Source: a virus (Duplodnaviria; Caudoviricetes). From it: a stretch of 52,462 nt of DNA. Each line of letters begins with the position of its first letter. Position 1 is the stretch's first letter. Under the pieces are notes generated by a model, which did no database searches, had not been told where the DNA came from, and saw only the letters and a list, made by a program, of their open reading frames with translations. Positions 1,875 through 47,712 of this stretch are shown piece by piece. Made by a program: the position numbers and the translations under genes. Where the stretch lies: IMG/VR virus record IMGVR_UViG_3300042549_010209, positions 1 through 52,462 of that record. One strand, 5' to 3'.

Positions 1875-2336
1875 AAGTATAGAAGTTTTTGACGGGTTAT
1901 TTACTGTTTACCGTTATCCGTTTATTATTTGCTTGGAACCATCTAAAGTTCCTTTCATTACTACTTTATCGATTCTAGAATCAATGTAGCTGCTTAGATC
2001 AGTACGCACTGTATGGACTGCCTTGCCTGTTTCTTGTCGTGCTTGATCAATTTGGTTCATAATAGTTTTTTCTACCATTGTGATATCACGTCCTGTACTT
2101 TCAAATTTACGCCATACGTTATTGTAATCATCTTTCATAGCATCATACAATTCACTACGTGTACGTTCTAGTGAAGAATTTAAATATTCTTGTTGTTTTT
2201 CTAGTTTATTAATCTTAGCTAAACCTGCAACAATAGAAGCTGATATAAAAGCTGCTACAATCGTAAGCATACCTAAAACAAATGAGGTTATTTCCATAAT
2301 TTTTAATTTTTAATATGTCAAAGAACTTCTATACTT
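1875..2336. repeat. Inverted repeat (1875-1893 / 2317-2336) enclosing ORF 1914-2297; upstream arm contains boxA-like GTTCTTTGACAT
   Basis: Sense AAGTATAGAAGTTCTTTGAC pairs with GTCAAAAACTTCTATACTT (19 bp, one bulged C). Confidence 0.75.
1914..2297 (-). CDS. Hypothetical membrane-anchored coiled-coil protein
   Basis: N-terminal hydrophobic helix followed by a heptad-rich segment. Confidence 0.75.
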   Translation of the reverse strand: MEITSFVLGMLTIVAAFISASIVAGLAKINKLEKQQEYLNSSLERTRSELYDAMKDDYNNVWRKFESTGRDITMVEKTIMNQIDQARQETGKAVHTVRTDLSSYIDSRIDKVVMKGTLDGSKQIING

Positions 2337-2347
2337 GTCCCCAATAT

Positions 2348-2394
2348 AAAAAACCCCTAGTAGTATTCCAAGCGTCCTTGGCACTTGCTAGGGG
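2348..2394 (-). terminator. Rho-independent terminator-like hairpin closing the ncRNA candidate
   Basis: CCCCTAG...CCAAG-GACG-CTTGG...CTAGGGG followed by TTTTTT. Confidence 0.7.
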
Positions 2395-2725
2395 GTGATA
2401 CTTGGTTATAGGGTTGTCTATGAAGGCACCGTCGCGCACCCATAAAGCAGATCCCATTTCCCAATATCGAGAAAGACCATCTGAGTGAGCAGATCTAACG
2501 GTATGCCCGATGGTACTTGACCTATGGATTCTATCCACAGGGGGGAGTGTTACATTGATTTGGGTTCAATGTAGAAAACCTTTATACATTCCCTACCAAA
2601 GGTAAAGAACTATACTCTACAACCGGAGAAATAGAGGATCCCAATGTTTCCATTGGTGGGGTAAAAGACCTACCCTGGTACGCTCGATCGGGGACACCCC
2701 AGTCCAGAAGCGTGGTAGGTACTGT
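2348..2725 (-). ncRNA. Candidate large structured ncRNA (~380 nt), class unidentified
   Basis: GC-enriched versus flanks, many hairpins (ACCTACC/GGTAGGT, CCAATG-GAAA-CATTGG, TACATTGA/TCAATGTA, CCTGTGGAT/ATCCATAGG), bounded by late motif 2731-2739 and a terminator. Confidence 0.6.
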
Positions 2726-2729
2726 CAAA

Positions 2730-3092
2730 CTATAAATATTGTTTAAGTAATTCTCCTTTATAGTGTTTTTCATATGTTCCTCGAGGATCATCATAATACA
2801 TTGCCATATATGTTGTCATTTTATCAAATGATTCAAATACAAATGTTTGACAACCAACACTAACAATAAACCCATTATGTACGTGTTTAATAGTTACATC
2901 ATATTGGGCTAATTTATCATTTATGTCTACAGGCATTGGTATTGATTCCTCTCTACACACTTCTTCTCTATCATATGCTTCAAGTGCGGGTTCTCCTTCC
3001 TGAGGAAGTTCTCCCATGTCAATAATTTCTTCTAGTGCGTCTTGAAATGCTCTTCCTAGATCTGTTACTCGTTCTTCTTGTCTTCTATTCAT
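2730..3092 (-). CDS. Hypothetical protein
   Basis: 120-aa ORF with ATG start, A-rich leader, typical composition. Confidence 0.75.
   Translation of the reverse strand: MNRRQEERVTDLGRAFQDALEEIIDMGELPQEGEPALEAYDREEVCREESIPMPVDINDKLAQYDVTIKHVHNGFIVSVGCQTFVFESFDKMTTYMAMYYDDPRGTYEKHYKGELLKQYL
2731..2739 (-). promoter_or_regulatory. Putative late promoter motif ATATTTATA upstream of ncRNA candidate
   Basis: Exact copy of the recurring motif, not followed by a credible ORF. Confidence 0.55.
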
Positions 3093-3111
3093 ATAACTTA
3101 TTTTATTTTAG

Positions 3112-3184
3112 TTGTCCCACAAGGGCTCGAACCTCGACTCTTCTGTACCAAAAACAGACGTGTTGCCAATTACACCATAGGACA
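3112..3184 (-). tRNA. tRNA-Gln(TTG)
   Basis: Acceptor TGTCCTA/TGGGACA, D arm GTGT/ACAC, anticodon arm TCTGT-TTTTGGT-ACAGA, T arm CGAGG-TTCGAGC-CCTTG; no encoded CCA. Confidence 0.92.
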
Positions 3185-3188
3185 ATTT

Positions 3189-3285
3189 AATAGAAGGCGA
3201 GAGCTTATTGCGATTCGTCTCTCTCGTCCACTTACCGGGTCATAGACGCCTCTATCCGGGTTGTGGCTTCCGCTTGCCTTCTATT
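3189..3285 (-). ncRNA. Small multi-branched structured RNA candidate
   Basis: 10-bp closing stem AATAGAAGGC/GCCTTCTATT enclosing internal hairpins (ATAGA-GGCG-TCTAT, GAGAG/CTCTC). Confidence 0.45.
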
Positions 3286-3344
3286 TGAAATTACTAAAAC
3301 CCATCTCCGTTGAGGTAAGGAAACTTCATTTCTTGTTTTTTGCG

Positions 3345-3429
3345 TAGTCAGGACAGGATTCGAACCTGTACTAAACCTGGTATACACCATATTAAATTAG
3401 GGACGTGTTACCAATTACACCACCTGACT
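3345..3429 (-). tRNA. tRNA-like element / pseudo-tRNA (no assignable anticodon)
   Basis: Perfect acceptor AGTCAGG/CCTGACT, D arm GTGT/ACAC and T arm ACAGG-TTCGAAT-CCTGT, but the middle region cannot form a canonical anticodon stem. Confidence 0.65.
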
Positions 3430-3434
3430 ATATT

Positions 3435-3592
3435 GGTAAAGATTTGTAAGCCAACGTATGATTACCCTTACGTCTCGTTTCTTTTGTCTTCGGCACTCTA
3501 CCATTGCAAGTACGCCTTATCTTGCGCCGCCGTTCATGAATTTTCCGAAATTCTAACGGCTGTTACTGTTAACTATCGGAATCAAGTAACTA
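3435..3592 (-). ncRNA. Structured spacer RNA candidate between tRNA genes
   Basis: Hairpins GCCGTT-A-GAATTT-CGGA-AAATTC-ATG-AACGGC, GCAAG/CTTGC, ACGTA/TACGT, GTTAC/GTAAC. Confidence 0.35.
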
Positions 3593-3595
3593 CTG

Positions 3596-3668
3596 TAGCG
3601 GGGGCCGGATTCGAACCAACGTCCTCGGGTTATGAGCCCGCCGAGAATACCATCTTCTCCACCCCACT
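3596..3668 (-). tRNA. tRNA-Met(CAT), initiator type
   Basis: Cloverleaf with anticodon arm CGGG-CTCATAA-CCCG (three G-C pairs) and A11:U24, both initiator hallmarks. Confidence 0.9.
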
Positions 3669-3676
3669 ATCTTATT

Positions 3677-3775
3677 TTATTTCCTTTGTTTGTTTTTTCT
3701 GCTTGCTTCTGTTTTTACAAACGTTATCCAACCTTGTAATTGTTCTACTCTTTGTTTTGCACTTACTTTACTCAT
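3677..3775 (-). CDS. Small basic hypothetical protein (32 aa)
   Basis: Manual translation MSKVSAKQRVEQLQGWITFVKTEASRKNKQRK, directly downstream of a promoter. Confidence 0.5.
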   Translation of the reverse strand: MSKVSAKQRVEQLQGWITFVKTEASRKNKQRK

Positions 3776-13872: not shown

Positions 13873-14340
13873 CTACTTGTCTTGAAATATTCCAATATGA
13901 TCTAAAGCCTCTATATAATCACGTTCAGGGTATACTTTCATATTAGCCATATCCATTTTATATTCCATAAATTCACCGGGTTTACCTGGGATTGGATGAT
14001 TTGGTCGGTCTTCTTCTGAAAGTTTAATTGATTTTACAGCTGCCCATCCCCAATTTGAAGCATTTCTTCCGTTTGCAAATATCATCCCCAATTCAGGTTC
14101 GTTAATTGTATTTGGAATCCAAGTTAAACCTGTTTTTTCATCTACCCAAGCTAAATCTTTATACAACTCAGGTAACGTTTGCATTTGGGCTTCATAAAAA
14201 TCCTCACCTTCTTTCATTAAGCTGTTAGTCCAATAACCACAACTTAAACTTAGGTAATTTGAAATGTCAGGTGTTACTTGTGTTTTATAACATAAATCCC
14301 CTCCTGATTTAGGGCATTGAATTATTTCTTCGTGTTGCAT
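13873..14340 (-). CDS. Hypothetical protein (possible Zn ribbon)
   Basis: CPKSGG..CY...SCGY; operon context. Confidence 0.75.
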   Translation of the reverse strand: MQHEEIIQCPKSGGDLCYKTQVTPDISNYLSLSCGYWTNSLMKEGEDFYEAQMQTLPELYKDLAWVDEKTGLTWIPNTINEPELGMIFANGRNASNWGWAAVKSIKLSEEDRPNHPIPGKPGEFMEYKMDMANMKVYPERDYIEALDHIGIFQDK

Positions 14341-15632
14341 TATGCTTCTACTTTTTTAAGTTTAGGTAATTCGATTTTTTTCAATTGAGGTAATTGCAAT
14401 GGTACTTGTTTTGGAAATTCAGGTATTCTTTCATTGAAAACACTATTTAATTTCTCTTTCATGTTTTCAAATGAGAATTTTGATCTTGAATGGAATCCTT
14501 GACGTTTTGCTTTTTCAAGATATGGTTTATAGTTGTCAAATACATCTTTCAAATAATGTCCTATATGTCCATGATCAACAGAAAACCATTGTGCTTCTTT
14601 CATTAACATGTTGTTGGCTGCACTTGGATGAACTTCAGTTAATGTTCCTTGAAGTAATGTAGTGAATTCTGGGTTTAAATAATCAGTATGTCCACTCCAA
14701 TTTGTTGTAATTATTGGTTTGTTTACCATAGAGAATTCAAGTAACGGACGACCAAAACCTTCTCCTTTAGTTAAATTAACCATTGCTTTAACTTTAGAGT
14801 GGTTATATATCTCATTCATCTCCCCATCTGTAAATTCACCATGAAGTAAATATACATTAGGTAAATGGGTTGATTTACATGATTCTTTAATAGATGTAAT
14901 TTTTTTCAATATCTCATCTCTATCCATATATGAAGAACCTACTTGAGATGTTTTTAAGATTAATGCTGGTTTTTTAGTTTTGTTTTTGAATGTTTCAAAG
15001 AACGCTTTAACTAGTAAACCTACATTTTTTCTATCCTCATTTATTTGCCCTTGCATCCAATGTCCTACAAATAGGTAAGCAAAATCTTCCTTAATTGAAG
15101 ACAAATCAAAATCAGATTTAACAGGTTTGTAAGTATTAACGTCTGCTCCTTCAAATATTACTTCGCTATTTCCTTTCCATTCAATGAATCCCATTGATTG
15201 GTTTGTTTGTTGGTCGCGTTTTTCAAATTTAGAACTTTTCAACACATTAATTGTGTGATTTGATGAACCTAATATTAAATCCATTCTACTACAACCTTCT
15301 ACCCATTCTGCAGGTGCTATTGTTGTTTCAATACCAGCTGTACATCCAATGTTATATTTTCCAACTTTTTGAAATTCATTTGGAACCGTAATTTGCATCC
15401 AAATTTCTGGTTGAGATGGTAATTGTGGTGAATTTAACATGTGTTTAGTTAAAAATGACCATTCTGGATTGTTTTTGATGAATCCTTTAGGTGTTGCACC
15501 CCATCGTTGAGGTAGGATTTTTACATCATATCTATTTAATTCAATAATCGCTTTAACGATGTCGCGAGAACGTGCTCCATAACCACTATATGTGTCAATC
15601 GGGCAACTAATTATAAATGTTGGTAAGCTCAT
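14340..15632 (-). CDS. Glycosyltransferase family 4 (GT-B)
   Basis: SGYG, DRKN, KGEGFGRPLLEF. Confidence 0.88.
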   Translation of the reverse strand: MSLPTFIISCPIDTYSGYGARSRDIVKAIIELNRYDVKILPQRWGATPKGFIKNNPEWSFLTKHMLNSPQLPSQPEIWMQITVPNEFQKVGKYNIGCTAGIETTIAPAEWVEGCSRMDLILGSSNHTINVLKSSKFEKRDQQTNQSMGFIEWKGNSEVIFEGADVNTYKPVKSDFDLSSIKEDFAYLFVGHWMQGQINEDRKNVGLLVKAFFETFKNKTKKPALILKTSQVGSSYMDRDEILKKITSIKESCKSTHLPNVYLLHGEFTDGEMNEIYNHSKVKAMVNLTKGEGFGRPLLEFSMVNKPIITTNWSGHTDYLNPEFTTLLQGTLTEVHPSAANNMLMKEAQWFSVDHGHIGHYLKDVFDNYKPYLEKAKRQGFHSRSKFSFENMKEKLNSVFNERIPEFPKQVPLQLPQLKKIELPKLKKVEA

Positions 15633-15633
15633 T

Positions 15634-17073
15634 TTAGTATAATAATTCGTGTTTAATTGTATCTTCTTTTATCTCGTTGCAATTGATTAGCTCATATTTT
15701 GAGCGCGGGATCCACGTTGAAAATAATTTATCTATCGCGTCTATTACTCTAGTTCCCATTATTTCTCCGGTAAAACCTGCTTCATTTAATGCCCAAACTC
15801 TTCCTGTTTTACCAAGTTCTTTTCTCATTGTTCTACCCAATGCATATACTTCAGAAATACGAGCAGCTGCATCTTCAGCATTACATCTATCATCCCAAAT
15901 ATAAGGTGTTTTAGGTGAACCTTGAATTGATCGGTTTGTTGGATAAACTGGAAATGCCCAGCAACCATGGTTTTTCAATTTGCCAGTATGGTTTGAAGGT
16001 AATTTTTTAGTTGGTACAAACCAATTTCCATACTCGTCTTCAAATCTCATTTGATCTTGCATTCCACCGGTTACATTTGCTATTACTACAGTTCCTGCTA
16101 AAATTGCCTCTGTAATCGATAGACCCCATCCTTCATTTGAAGTTAACAAGATTTGAGTATCTGCAATGTTATACAAGAAATTCAATTCTTTTGACGATAA
16201 TTTATTTGTTGAATAATAAATTGCATTTGGATAGTCTTGGAACAATATTTTACGTACTGCCTCTAAATCTGTTCCATGTTCACTTACTATTTCGGTATGT
16301 AAAACCATAGCACATTTTTGAGCTTTCTCTTTAGTTAATGTATCCAAAAAATACCTAAATGCAAGCATTGTATCCGGGATTTGTTTTCTTCGAATGTTTC
16401 TTGAATTGAAAAACACTACGAAATCTTTTTCTTGACCTGCAAACAATTGATTTCTAAACGCCTCTAATTCTTTTAATTCGTTTTCGTTTTCAATTGGATA
16501 GTAATGGTTTTCATTTAAACCATGAGGAACATACTCTATAATTTTTCCTTCTGTTTTATCACCCAATACCAATTCATTAATTAATTTGGTTTGTTTTGAA
16601 ATAGCTAACAATGCATCACACGATTCATAAAATGCTTTGTTGTACAACGGTGCCGGATAATCATCCCAAATGTTCAAGTAAATAATTGGAATGTTTTGTC
16701 TAATTTCATTTTCAATCATAAACAACCACTCAAAATACCTTGGATCCGTGATCAACATAATTGCATCTGGTTTTTCCATTTCAATCAATTGTCTAATTAA
16801 ATCAGCATCTCCATATCCGTTTGACGGATATACTACAACTGAAGAATCTGTTATACCTGCGTTTGTGTTTGTGTCCGCTGATAGATCTAGGCGTTTGCCT
16901 TGCTCGGGGTGGTTAATTGCTCCGGCAATGTTAACCCAATTAAAATGTTGTACTGTATTAAGTACAATTTCACGTGCTACTGTTGCTACACCCGAATGTA
17001 CTCTAATGTCGTCGCAAATTAAAAGGATTTTTTTCCTTTCGTTTTGTGGTAAATAACCAAATTTTTCTTTCAT
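15634..17073 (-). CDS. Glycosyltransferase family 4 (GT-B)
   Basis: HSGVA, PHG, RNIRRK, EGWGLSITEA. Confidence 0.9.
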   Translation of the reverse strand: MKEKFGYLPQNERKKILLICDDIRVHSGVATVAREIVLNTVQHFNWVNIAGAINHPEQGKRLDLSADTNTNAGITDSSVVVYPSNGYGDADLIRQLIEMEKPDAIMLITDPRYFEWLFMIENEIRQNIPIIYLNIWDDYPAPLYNKAFYESCDALLAISKQTKLINELVLGDKTEGKIIEYVPHGLNENHYYPIENENELKELEAFRNQLFAGQEKDFVVFFNSRNIRRKQIPDTMLAFRYFLDTLTKEKAQKCAMVLHTEIVSEHGTDLEAVRKILFQDYPNAIYYSTNKLSSKELNFLYNIADTQILLTSNEGWGLSITEAILAGTVVIANVTGGMQDQMRFEDEYGNWFVPTKKLPSNHTGKLKNHGCWAFPVYPTNRSIQGSPKTPYIWDDRCNAEDAAARISEVYALGRTMRKELGKTGRVWALNEAGFTGEIMGTRVIDAIDKLFSTWIPRSKYELINCNEIKEDTIKHELLY

Positions 17074-19150: not shown

Positions 19151-19173
19151 TTTTAAGTATTTTATTATAAATA

Positions 19174-19398
19174 TTATAAACCTTTTGTTTCTACGGTTTT
19201 TTTCAATTTTTCCAGGTATAATATAGCATCCATATGTTCTTGTTTGGCATGCTCAATCCATTCCAAAACACTTAAATCTTCACGATCTAAATCTACTCCA
19301 TATTTTTGTTTACCAAATGTTGCTCTTTGTACAAACTGGTCAATAATTGAATCAACTACTGAATCTGTTTGGTTTATTAGTCTAAATACTTTATTCAT
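19174..19398 (-). CDS. Small MazG-like all-alpha NTP pyrophosphatase-like protein
   Basis: G..KYG..L.R.D....W..HA.QE.MDAILY pattern. Confidence 0.5.
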   Translation of the reverse strand: MNKVFRLINQTDSVVDSIIDQFVQRATFGKQKYGVDLDREDLSVLEWIEHAKQEHMDAILYLEKLKKTVETKGL

Positions 19399-47607: not shown

Positions 47608-47712
47608 TTGTTTTTGGTTTTATTATAAATATGGTATAAAAAATAAAAGACATCATTTAGATAACTTTTTTATTTTTAGTTTATTTTTTATTCAGTTATA
47701 AATATTACCATT

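Follow-up and report, generated by a model that had tools for sequence, protein, structure and literature searches.

AbiF is described in three papers (PMC12737573, PMC12373285, PMC13064643) as a HEPN RNase toxin whose antitoxin is a non-coding RNA encoded just upstream, the two forming a type III pair in which the RNA acts in trans; in the Prevotellaceae PbAbiF-non-coding RNA complex (PDB 8VZ6), each monomer of the dimer binds one RNA. In Bacteroidota the upstream RNA is a short hairpin that binds AbiF and so holds it inactive. In C. difficile, an RNA with two motifs neutralises its toxin in cis as well as in trans (PMC12373285). Reviews count AbiF/Abi_2 among the most abundant abortive-infection families and present it as the ancestor of Cas13. 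Here we describe a predicted RNA of about 378 nucleotides (nt) encoded on the minus strand, from 2726 down to 2349, of a viral contig fragment of 52,462 bases (IMG/VR record IMGVR_UViG_3300042549_010209, completeness 36% per CheckV; the whole fragment is hereafter the window). Since this RNA bears two hairpins of the AbiF-antitoxin type, it is most likely a decoy that switches off AbiF defence, i.e., an orphan antitoxin mimic that would neutralise the AbiF (Abi_2/AbiD-F) of the host, and we put the probability of this reading at roughly 0.6.

RNA mimicry of a type III antitoxin is already known as a kind of mechanism. The pseudo-ToxI of Pectobacterium phage ΦTE is, according to Blower et al. 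2012 (PMC3475682), a phage-encoded RNA mimic of a type III antitoxin by which an abortive-infection RNase is suppressed; its target belongs to the ToxN toxin family, and it consists of tandem 36-nt repeats that were expanded or captured in escape mutants. In contrast, the RNA described here has no tandem repeats (Tandem Repeats Finder reported just a 7-nt AT repeat at 2300-2314 and no ToxI-like repeats of about 34-36 nt), and its AbiF-type hairpins are a standing feature of many wild phage contigs, set here within a structured RNA of larger size. In another case, that of the phage RNA anti-CRISPRs ("Racr", solitary repeat units), the phage copies an effector's own RNA partner in order to occupy the effector. 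The target proposed here would differ in being a non-guided toxin rather than a CRISPR effector, with no repeat/spacer logic, but the parallel gains weight because the AbiF papers cited above present Cas13 as derived from AbiF. Structured non-coding RNAs beside phage tRNA genes are likewise known, namely large RNAs such as GOLLD and ROOL and, in the tRNA cluster of T4, small stable RNAs; the present RNA differs in being smaller, in being a linear chain of hairpins and in that part of it can be tied to a defence system, and it matched no Rfam family of this kind at E<=10.

A minus-strand gene for a structured RNA

The GC-rich island that contains no open reading frame (ORF) of note is a genuine minus-strand gene for a structured RNA. 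The window is AT-rich, with nearly all long ORFs on the minus strand, and GC content reaches 42-46% across 2301-2800 versus roughly 25-37% in most of the flanks, which confirms the GC-enriched island noted in a preliminary description made from the sequence alone. The motifs named in that description are words of the minus strand, so the RNA reads from right to left in window coordinates. Read downward from 2745, the minus strand gives AATATTTATAG, then GACAGUACC…, and last the terminator hairpin CCCCUAG…CUAGGGG with its six U (2394-2349). This terminator, which had been recognised previously, was missed by a scan with sigma-70 and terminator consensus sequences because its loop is long. The fold of the minus strand has a z-score of -3.32, with 0 of 100 shuffles as good, versus -1.99 and 4 of 100 for the plus strand, and the plus strand was rejected as the RNA strand on account of its weaker fold and because the terminator and motifs read on the minus strand. 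For the 378-nt RNA alone (2726 to 2349) the z-score is -3.34 (0/100 shuffles as good), and the minimum-free-energy fold contains about nine hairpins in a linear chain, where at least six had been counted before.

A promoter-like box, AATATTTATAG, lies at 2730-2740 on the minus strand, about 4 nt upstream of the predicted RNA start, and overlaps the stop-codon region of an upstream ORF of 120 amino acids (aa; 2730-3092). Relatives carry ATATTTAT or TATATTTG at an equal distance from the RNA start, which we take to resemble the Bacteroidetes -7 box TAnnTTTG. The presence of an exact box ahead of the RNA thus stands as first described, but the label "late" given to it is unsupported, as the box is also found before three genes and the motif occurs 9 times versus 6.0 expected. 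These three sites, where AATATTTATAA lies shortly before gene starts on the minus strand (1853-1863, 19165-19175 and 47696-47706), mark the box as a candidate phage promoter element.

Relatives were found by way of the upstream 120-aa protein, which is shared by seven viral loci. Per nhmmer, two of these, L002 and L003, have the full RNA (E 4e-109 and 4e-86), and L008 has a short form of about 140 nt with the start, the terminator and an 18-mer (window 2506-2489) in common with the window; in the other four nhmmer found no RNA, and L005 and L006 show coding-like sequence in its place. Nucleotide identity to the window is 94% (L002) and 86% (L003) for the RNA, and 86% and 82%, respectively, for the neighbouring gene. 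Six full-length sequences could be aligned, giving a consensus of 97 pairs with compensatory change in 24. The 3' core was represented by 23 distinct sequences (alignment A2) with 32 pairs, in which 96.9% of cells are paired versus 81.6% in shuffles and 119 cells show a double change versus 40 in shuffles; the observed values were reached by 0 of 500 shuffles, and slid controls paired in at most 44% of cells. Homologs therefore support the fold. A long-range helix of GGUUGUAG with CUAUAACC, proposed in the preliminary description, is not kept in relatives and is absent from the RNAalifold prediction. It was rejected, as its first arm reads GGUUCUAG in L002, L003 and L010 with no compensating change and is replaced in L028 and L032, which keep UAUAACC.

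To see what is present in RNA libraries, we used 20 public runs that contain part of window 1900-3700, of which six are metatranscriptomes, and mapped the contigs of four of the latter (four studies). The RNA-library contigs lie mainly over 2388-2753 and over the tRNA and spacer region 3116-3668, and they leave 2754-3058 and most of 1900-2143 barely covered or bare; uncovered stretches (e.g., 2327-2387 and 2754-2814) are no evidence of transcript ends. Several short contigs lie wholly inside the RNA, for instance one of 238 nt (2487-2722) and one of 200 nt (2490-2689). Some contigs join the two AbiF-type hairpins (modules M6 and M1, below) across other inserts, which fits relatives with other sets of modules, and one has adapter-like sequence joined at 2471/2472, a single record that does not establish a processing site.

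It is scarcely credible, in view of these data, that the region holds no RNA gene but a GC-rich coding remnant or an element acting as DNA, for instance a site of recombination or packaging. In favour of this are the open frames of 56-79 aa found there. However, the sole frames in the RNA interval of the window, of 69 and 70 aa, both lack a Pfam match, and in 5 of 5 relatives examined the open frames differ in frame and position, so that the small ORFs were rejected as coding genes in agreement with the preliminary description. Additionally, substitutions in the helices are compensatory, and the short RNA-library contigs wholly within the element are at odds with this explanation.

Searches against known families returned little. 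Rfam at the gathering score detected three tRNAs only in the window, and at E<=10 gave sub-threshold noise only; the RNA is not a tmRNA (none per ARAGORN) nor an RNase P RNA (no Rfam match), as previously judged, and no Rfam ribozyme or large-RNA family was matched at E<=10. No evidence was found for the packaging, cage-forming or ribozyme roles that had been suggested. BLASTN with the whole RNA and with each hairpin returned nothing useful from 50,697 deposited phage genomes or from plasmids, and a bacterial copy of the hairpin searched against the deposited phage genomes (E<=10) retrieved three chance-level matches in Firmicutes phages. The RNA is thus absent from Rfam, as anticipated, but "undescribed" does not hold for all of it, as key parts are related to a published class of antitoxin RNA.

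Hairpins shared with AbiF loci of Bacteroidota

The modules of the RNA are labelled M1 to M8 from its 5' end. The 18-mer that the window has in common with the short form (GCAUACCGUUAGAUCUGC, 2506-2489) is the apex of M6, a hairpin at 2462-2518 (minus strand) with the layout AAGUACC, basal stem CAUC/GAUG, the 18-nt apex, a 3' bulge UCACUCA, and GGUCUUU. When the 18-mer was scanned for with one W, matches came from at least 119 stretches of viral sequence and at least 120 from genomes, and the genomes, among the matches listed, are nearly all Bacteroidota, with example genera Prevotella, Bacteroides, Flavobacterium, Chitinophaga, Algoriphagus, Porphyromonas and Tannerella; four matches in other phyla, which lie in coding DNA and have no hairpin, are apparently due to chance. 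On either side of the 18-mer the sequence forms a stem that is variable, with 67 distinct left 7-mers. Across 149 distinct flank pairs, cognate arms pair with a median of -10.1 kcal/mol versus -4.7 for non-cognate arms (Mann-Whitney p ~9e-39, a value that is inflated because the sequences are related).

In bacteria the order is a promoter box, AACAGUAC, stem, 18-mer, stem and GUCAUUUUUU, followed 18-32 nt on by an ORF of about 300-310 aa. The four such ORFs tested all matched Pfam Abi_2 (E 1e-53 to 2e-56) and were all called AbiD by PADLOC, and one class-1-linked protein matched the PDB AbiF structure 8vz6_A ("Abi family protein") with E 6e-40. A local hidden Markov model (HMM) built from 60 of these proteins detected an AbiF-like ORF in 86 of the 120 listed bacterial loci. 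We defined class 1 by a covariance model, R1, from 35 bacterial AbiF-linked sequences, the criteria being the AACAGUAC leader, a basal stem of about 7 base pairs (bp), the 18-nt apex GCAUACCGUAAGAUCUGC and the GUCAUUUUUU tail. When R1 was run on the window, 2518-2462(-) was the top of 20 matches and full-length, at 21.7 bits and E ~0.013; the E-values of R1 and of the second model, R2, are rough because their calibration was short. Relative to R1, M6 has an AA-GUAC leader, GUUA in its apex and, on the 3' side of the latter, an insertion of 5 nt.

A second class came from the bacterial loci L166 and L178, in which a second small hairpin gene follows right after the first and has the build of the 5' module of the window, M1 (2660-2726, minus strand). 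M1 is composed of GACAGUAC, a variable stem of 5 bp, ACGCU…AGCGU, a bulge (ACCAG), the other stem arm, and GUCUUUU, and its apex bears an extra GGGG/CCCC hairpin. The model R2, built from 9 bacterial sequences, defines class 2 by (A/G)ACAGUAC, a 5-bp variable stem, ACGCU…AGCGU, an (A/C)CCAG bulge, the other stem arm, and GUCUUUUGC. On the window R2 matches 2726-2660(-) over model positions 1-55 of 55 with 53.7 bits and E ~2e-13, its training set having been gathered with a pattern derived partly from this window. Its second match is the class-1 hairpin, at 13.3 bits, from which we conclude that the two classes are related. The class-2 pattern is present in 8 of 401 sampled Bacteroidota genomes (reversed control 0). 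Among ten class-2 sites (L248 included), four are followed 58-78 nt on by intact AbiF ORFs of about 301 aa, a fifth by a truncated ORF and a sixth by fragments of AbiF, and two class-2-linked proteins match 8vz6_A (E 3e-53 and 6e-61). A bias-free route was also taken, starting from Abi_2 itself, which was found in 3 of 61 sampled genomes; 2 of the 3 loci have an R2 hairpin just upstream (78.8 and 42.5 bits).

In L166 (6048-6200, plus strand) and L178 (minus strand) the class-1 and class-2 genes lie one behind the other, each preceded by a TAnnTTTG-like box of its own, and the 8-kb locus contains no AbiF ORF. Among the genes downstream is an ORF with what is presumably a DUF262-like motif.

Both M1 and M6 share with the hairpins that lie just ahead of Bacteroidota abiF genes, the proteins of which match 8vz6_A, a 5' AGUAC leader, a covarying basal stem, a conserved upper stem and apex, and a GUC(A/U)UUU tail. 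The work on PbAbiF in complex with AbiFr, the non-coding RNA antitoxin of AbiF, is reportedly that of Zilberzwige-Tal et al. 2025. The phage hairpins differ from AbiFr in being orphans, with no abiF in the window, and in that two classes are present in one 378-nt RNA beside seven other hairpins. There is also a general likeness to RF03085 and RCd22, both hairpin RNAs linked to Abi_2/AbiF. RCd22, the C. difficile RNA (PMC12373285), likewise combines two motifs within a single RNA and has a terminator at its end, and it neutralises its toxin in trans; it differs in adjoining its toxin gene and in having its motifs 19 nt apart, versus about 140 nt here.

Phage copies without the toxin gene and the proposed decoy

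No AbiF-like ORF was detected by the HMM anywhere in the 52-kb window, and neither M1 nor M6 is directly upstream of an abiF; M1 is followed by the remainder of the RNA itself. With the same HMM, an AbiF-like ORF was found in 1 of the 119 listed viral loci, L099, which has the full pair and looks Prevotella-type. At 95 of these 119 sites at least 1200 nt of downstream sequence are available, so most loci could have shown an abiF. The class-2 pattern was found in 37 viral stretches, with an AbiF-like ORF in 0 of 37 (at least 1200 nt downstream in 35); ten of these stretches come directly after a conserved tRNA motif of the GGTTCGAnTCC type. Furthermore, Pfam Abi_2 has no match in any of the 5 large phage records with the hairpin that were examined; two of the five are complete with terminal repeats, and two, L010 (83% complete) and L003 (80%), hold the full-length RNA.

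These absences bear on the explanation that the phage carries, or once carried, an AbiF toxin-antitoxin system of its own, of which the RNA is the antitoxin half or a remnant in decay, the toxin lying elsewhere or having been lost, with no role in counter-defence. The window is, after all, a fragment, L099 shows that a phage locus can hold the full pair, and phage- and prophage-borne AbiF systems exist, e.g., in C. difficile (PMC12373285). Nevertheless, the counts of 1/119 and 0/37 and the lack of Abi_2 in the five large records speak against it, and decay does not fit an RNA that covaries and is better conserved than its neighbouring gene, which leaves this explanation improbable.

We regard as less probable still that the RNA is a cis-acting leader or attenuator of the downstream 127-aa gene (1914-2297), in the way that AbiF leaders attenuate abiF. 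The gene, an ORF with no Abi_2 match, starts about 50 nt after the end of the terminator, and the C. difficile antitoxin RNA does act in cis, by premature termination (PMC12373285). However, at the 33 of 119 listed viral sites that have an ORF within 150 nt, the downstream genes are diverse, including unrelated proteins of 84, 147, 166 and 233 aa and a terminase. Relatives that have the upstream gene but not the RNA carry other genes at this place, and 378 nt with about nine hairpins far exceed the needs of an attenuator.

In the decoy reading, infection would lower the supply of host antitoxin and so free AbiF, which would then destroy RNA and abort the infection. The phage RNA would offer a class-2 hairpin at its 5' end and a class-1 hairpin internally, which could bind the freed AbiF and keep it silent, while the remaining hairpins may give stability or serve further functions. 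Possible partners of the two hairpins are two clades of AbiF or else the two monomers of a single dimer, and RCd22, with its two motifs, is a precedent for the latter option. What the data show is the RNA gene, its structure, its likeness to the bacterial AbiF-linked hairpins and the lack of the toxin gene in phages; binding of AbiF, its neutralisation and a benefit to the phage are inferred. Among the functions offered in the preliminary description, "decoy" is thus the one favoured, given that two hairpins match AbiF-linked ones and the phage copies lack the toxin gene.

Several points weigh against this reading. It presupposes a host that has AbiF. The likeness is to hairpins that lie beside proteins matching 8vz6_A, and not to the antitoxin of the PbAbiF complex itself. 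Rfam's abiF motif, RF03085, matches neither the window (2330-2750) nor the bacterial hairpins tested (L145 6640-6800 and L250 1470-1610) at E<=10. Relative to the bacterial hairpins, the apex of M1 is enlarged, 22 nt versus 10-12 nt (10 in R2), and M6, at just 21.7 bits with a rough E-value, has a GUUA rather than a GUAA apex and a 3' bulge of 5-7 nt that is absent from bacterial class-1 copies. Both sets of loci were gathered by exact motifs, so that invariance of these motifs is by construction, the stems, leaders and tails being independent of it. The assembled contigs show presence, not strand, ends or level, and DNA carry-over is possible. Additionally, 34 of the 120 listed bacterial loci have no AbiF ORF in the stretch fetched (they comprise truncated loci, the four chance matches, phage-like contigs and eight hsdR-like sites), and the bacterial link to AbiF is not exclusive, as the class-1 hairpin also precedes type I hsdR-like ORFs at these 8 sites. 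Lastly, about two thirds of the RNA (M2-M5, M7 and M8), made up of other conserved, covarying hairpins, is unexplained by a decoy role.

The last two points would fit a multi-domain RNA that chiefly does something else, e.g., as a scaffold or regulator or by assisting tRNA or RNA processing, its AGUAC…GUCUUU hairpins being general Bacteroidota modules for stability, processing or termination that are common to AbiF leaders and not aimed at AbiF. The bacterial hairpin stands before hsdR and other genes besides, and a tRNA gene lies within 600 nt of 42 of 119 listed viral sites versus 3 of 122 bacterial ones. We nevertheless hold this explanation to be unlikely, if not to be dismissed. The hairpin is paired with AbiF in the 86 of 120 listed bacterial loci mentioned above, and the class-2 hairpin turned up at 2 of the 3 AbiF loci that were found without reference to the RNA. 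Neither termination nor stability by itself readily accounts for an 18-nt apex that is identical in phages and in AbiF leaders, and the presence of two different AbiF-linked classes in one phage RNA points to AbiF.

The hsdR-like sites are an observation in their own right. They comprise L139, L143, L152 (second copy), L211, L221, L237, L200 and L202, with a class-2 hairpin in the corresponding position in L253, and none has an AbiF ORF in the stretch fetched; hsdR was confirmed by Pfam and PADLOC in L139 and L200, and the remaining sites were judged from N-termini. The hairpin may therefore also be a leader for, or be linked to, restriction operons.

The identical 18-nt apex also forms part of other phage RNA architectures, of which there are at least two. 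In one it is flanked by GGGAUCGAAA … AAUCGUU, and in the other a CCCCCUAGGGAUAG…CCCUAGACC hairpin lies ahead of it; the loci concerned are L011, L017, L020, L027, L046, L051, L077, L085, L104, L117; and L019, L033, L037, L038, L044, L063, L073, L088, L094 and others.

Remaining modules, neighbouring features and significance

The other modules, all on the minus strand, are as follows. M2 (2641-2656) is a small hairpin flanked by CCACC and GG(A)AYCC, the stem of which changes with compensation among relatives. M3 (2615-2636) is the hairpin CUCUA…UAGAG, in place of which some relatives have another hairpin (CCAUGGUGAUACUGUUGCCAUGG). M4 (2544-2614) is made up of two hairpins (UUCUUUACC…AAAGG and CAUUGAACCCAAAUCAAUG). 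M5 (2521-2545), a run of C with the hairpin CCUGUGGAUAGAAUCCAUAGG, is found ahead of the AbiF-type hairpin in many phage contigs and constitutes helix 1 of alignment A2, with both-side change in 4 of 8 pairs and 98.4% of cells paired. M7 (2397-2468) is a long hairpin, which GAUAUUGG/CCAAGUAUC close and in which GGGAAA and UAUAAC are conserved, with an inner part that is variable and deleted in some relatives; it is helix 4 of A2 (both-side change in 5/7 pairs). M8 (2349-2394) is the terminator hairpin with its U-run, contains a further hairpin as well as an internal loop that is conserved (xAAG / AxxACU), and corresponds to helices 5 and 6 of A2, with both-side change in 9 of 12 pairs.

Modules are shuffled among relatives. 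L028 and L032 lack M4 at its place, and L028 has a copy of M4 behind its terminator; a differing hairpin occupies the M3 site in L028, L032, L106 and L035, and L031 is without M1. Crude regular expressions for M2, M4, M5 and M7, run on 130 bacterial loci, gave chance-looking matches only, save in L196, which is no proof of absence. In L196, a contig of a bacterial metagenome-assembled genome, an M4-like hairpin (…CGUUGAACCCAAAUCAACG… with a U-run) lies at about 2667-2700 on the plus strand, possibly in a prophage, and is the sole module besides M1 and M6 that was noticed in bacterial loci.

Such shuffling (L028, L032, L106, L031) brings up a broader and rather speculative variant, which we consider doubtful: the RNA could be a modular "decoy cassette" in which every hairpin mimics the RNA that pairs up with a different immune protein of the host, be it another RNA antitoxin or a guide-like RNA, the modules being shuffled by phages and often expressed and released from tRNA operons. 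Were it true, the cassette would be the RNA counterpart of the protein anti-defence islands in Bacteroidota phages.

The tRNA neighbourhood of the RNA has features of its own. A tRNA-like gene at 3344-3429 (minus strand) has about 25 extra bases in the anticodon region; ARAGORN reports it as "tRNA-???", and the Rfam tRNA model scores it at 47.7 bits with a 25-nt insert. RNA-library contigs skip 3371-3409 in two runs, which could reflect an intron or insert-free relatives. Two GC-rich spacers between tRNA genes on the minus strand have metatranscriptome cover and no Rfam match: the one at 3186-3290 would give an RNA of about 100 nt with a closing 10-bp stem (fold z-score -3.46), and the one at 3430-3594 is unremarkable (z-score -0.98). 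Farther away, two adjoining minus-strand ORFs of 430 and 479 aa (14340-17073) carry glycosyltransferase group 1 domains.

A full-text literature search, the scope of which was without the original 2025 AbiF paper and without supplements, retrieved papers on AbiF with its antitoxin and on pseudo-ToxI but no phage orphan mimic of an AbiF antitoxin, no mention of this RNA family and no natural phage countermeasure to AbiF. As far as checked, then, what would be new is AbiF as the target, the composite architecture with two classes, its location within tRNA clusters and its broad distribution in nature. In addition, two classes of AbiF antitoxin hairpins from Bacteroidota, both missed by the Rfam abiF model, are now ready for covariance models. 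If the decoy reading is true, mimicry of type III antitoxins would be a standing, widespread strategy of phages (at least 119 viral stretches for class 1 and 37 for class 2) and not only a matter of laboratory escape. It would also give a function to a phage RNA family that is absent from Rfam and, at the sensitivity of BLAST, from 50,697 deposited phage genomes, and the hairpins that a phage carries would offer a direct handle on which AbiF clades it can disarm.

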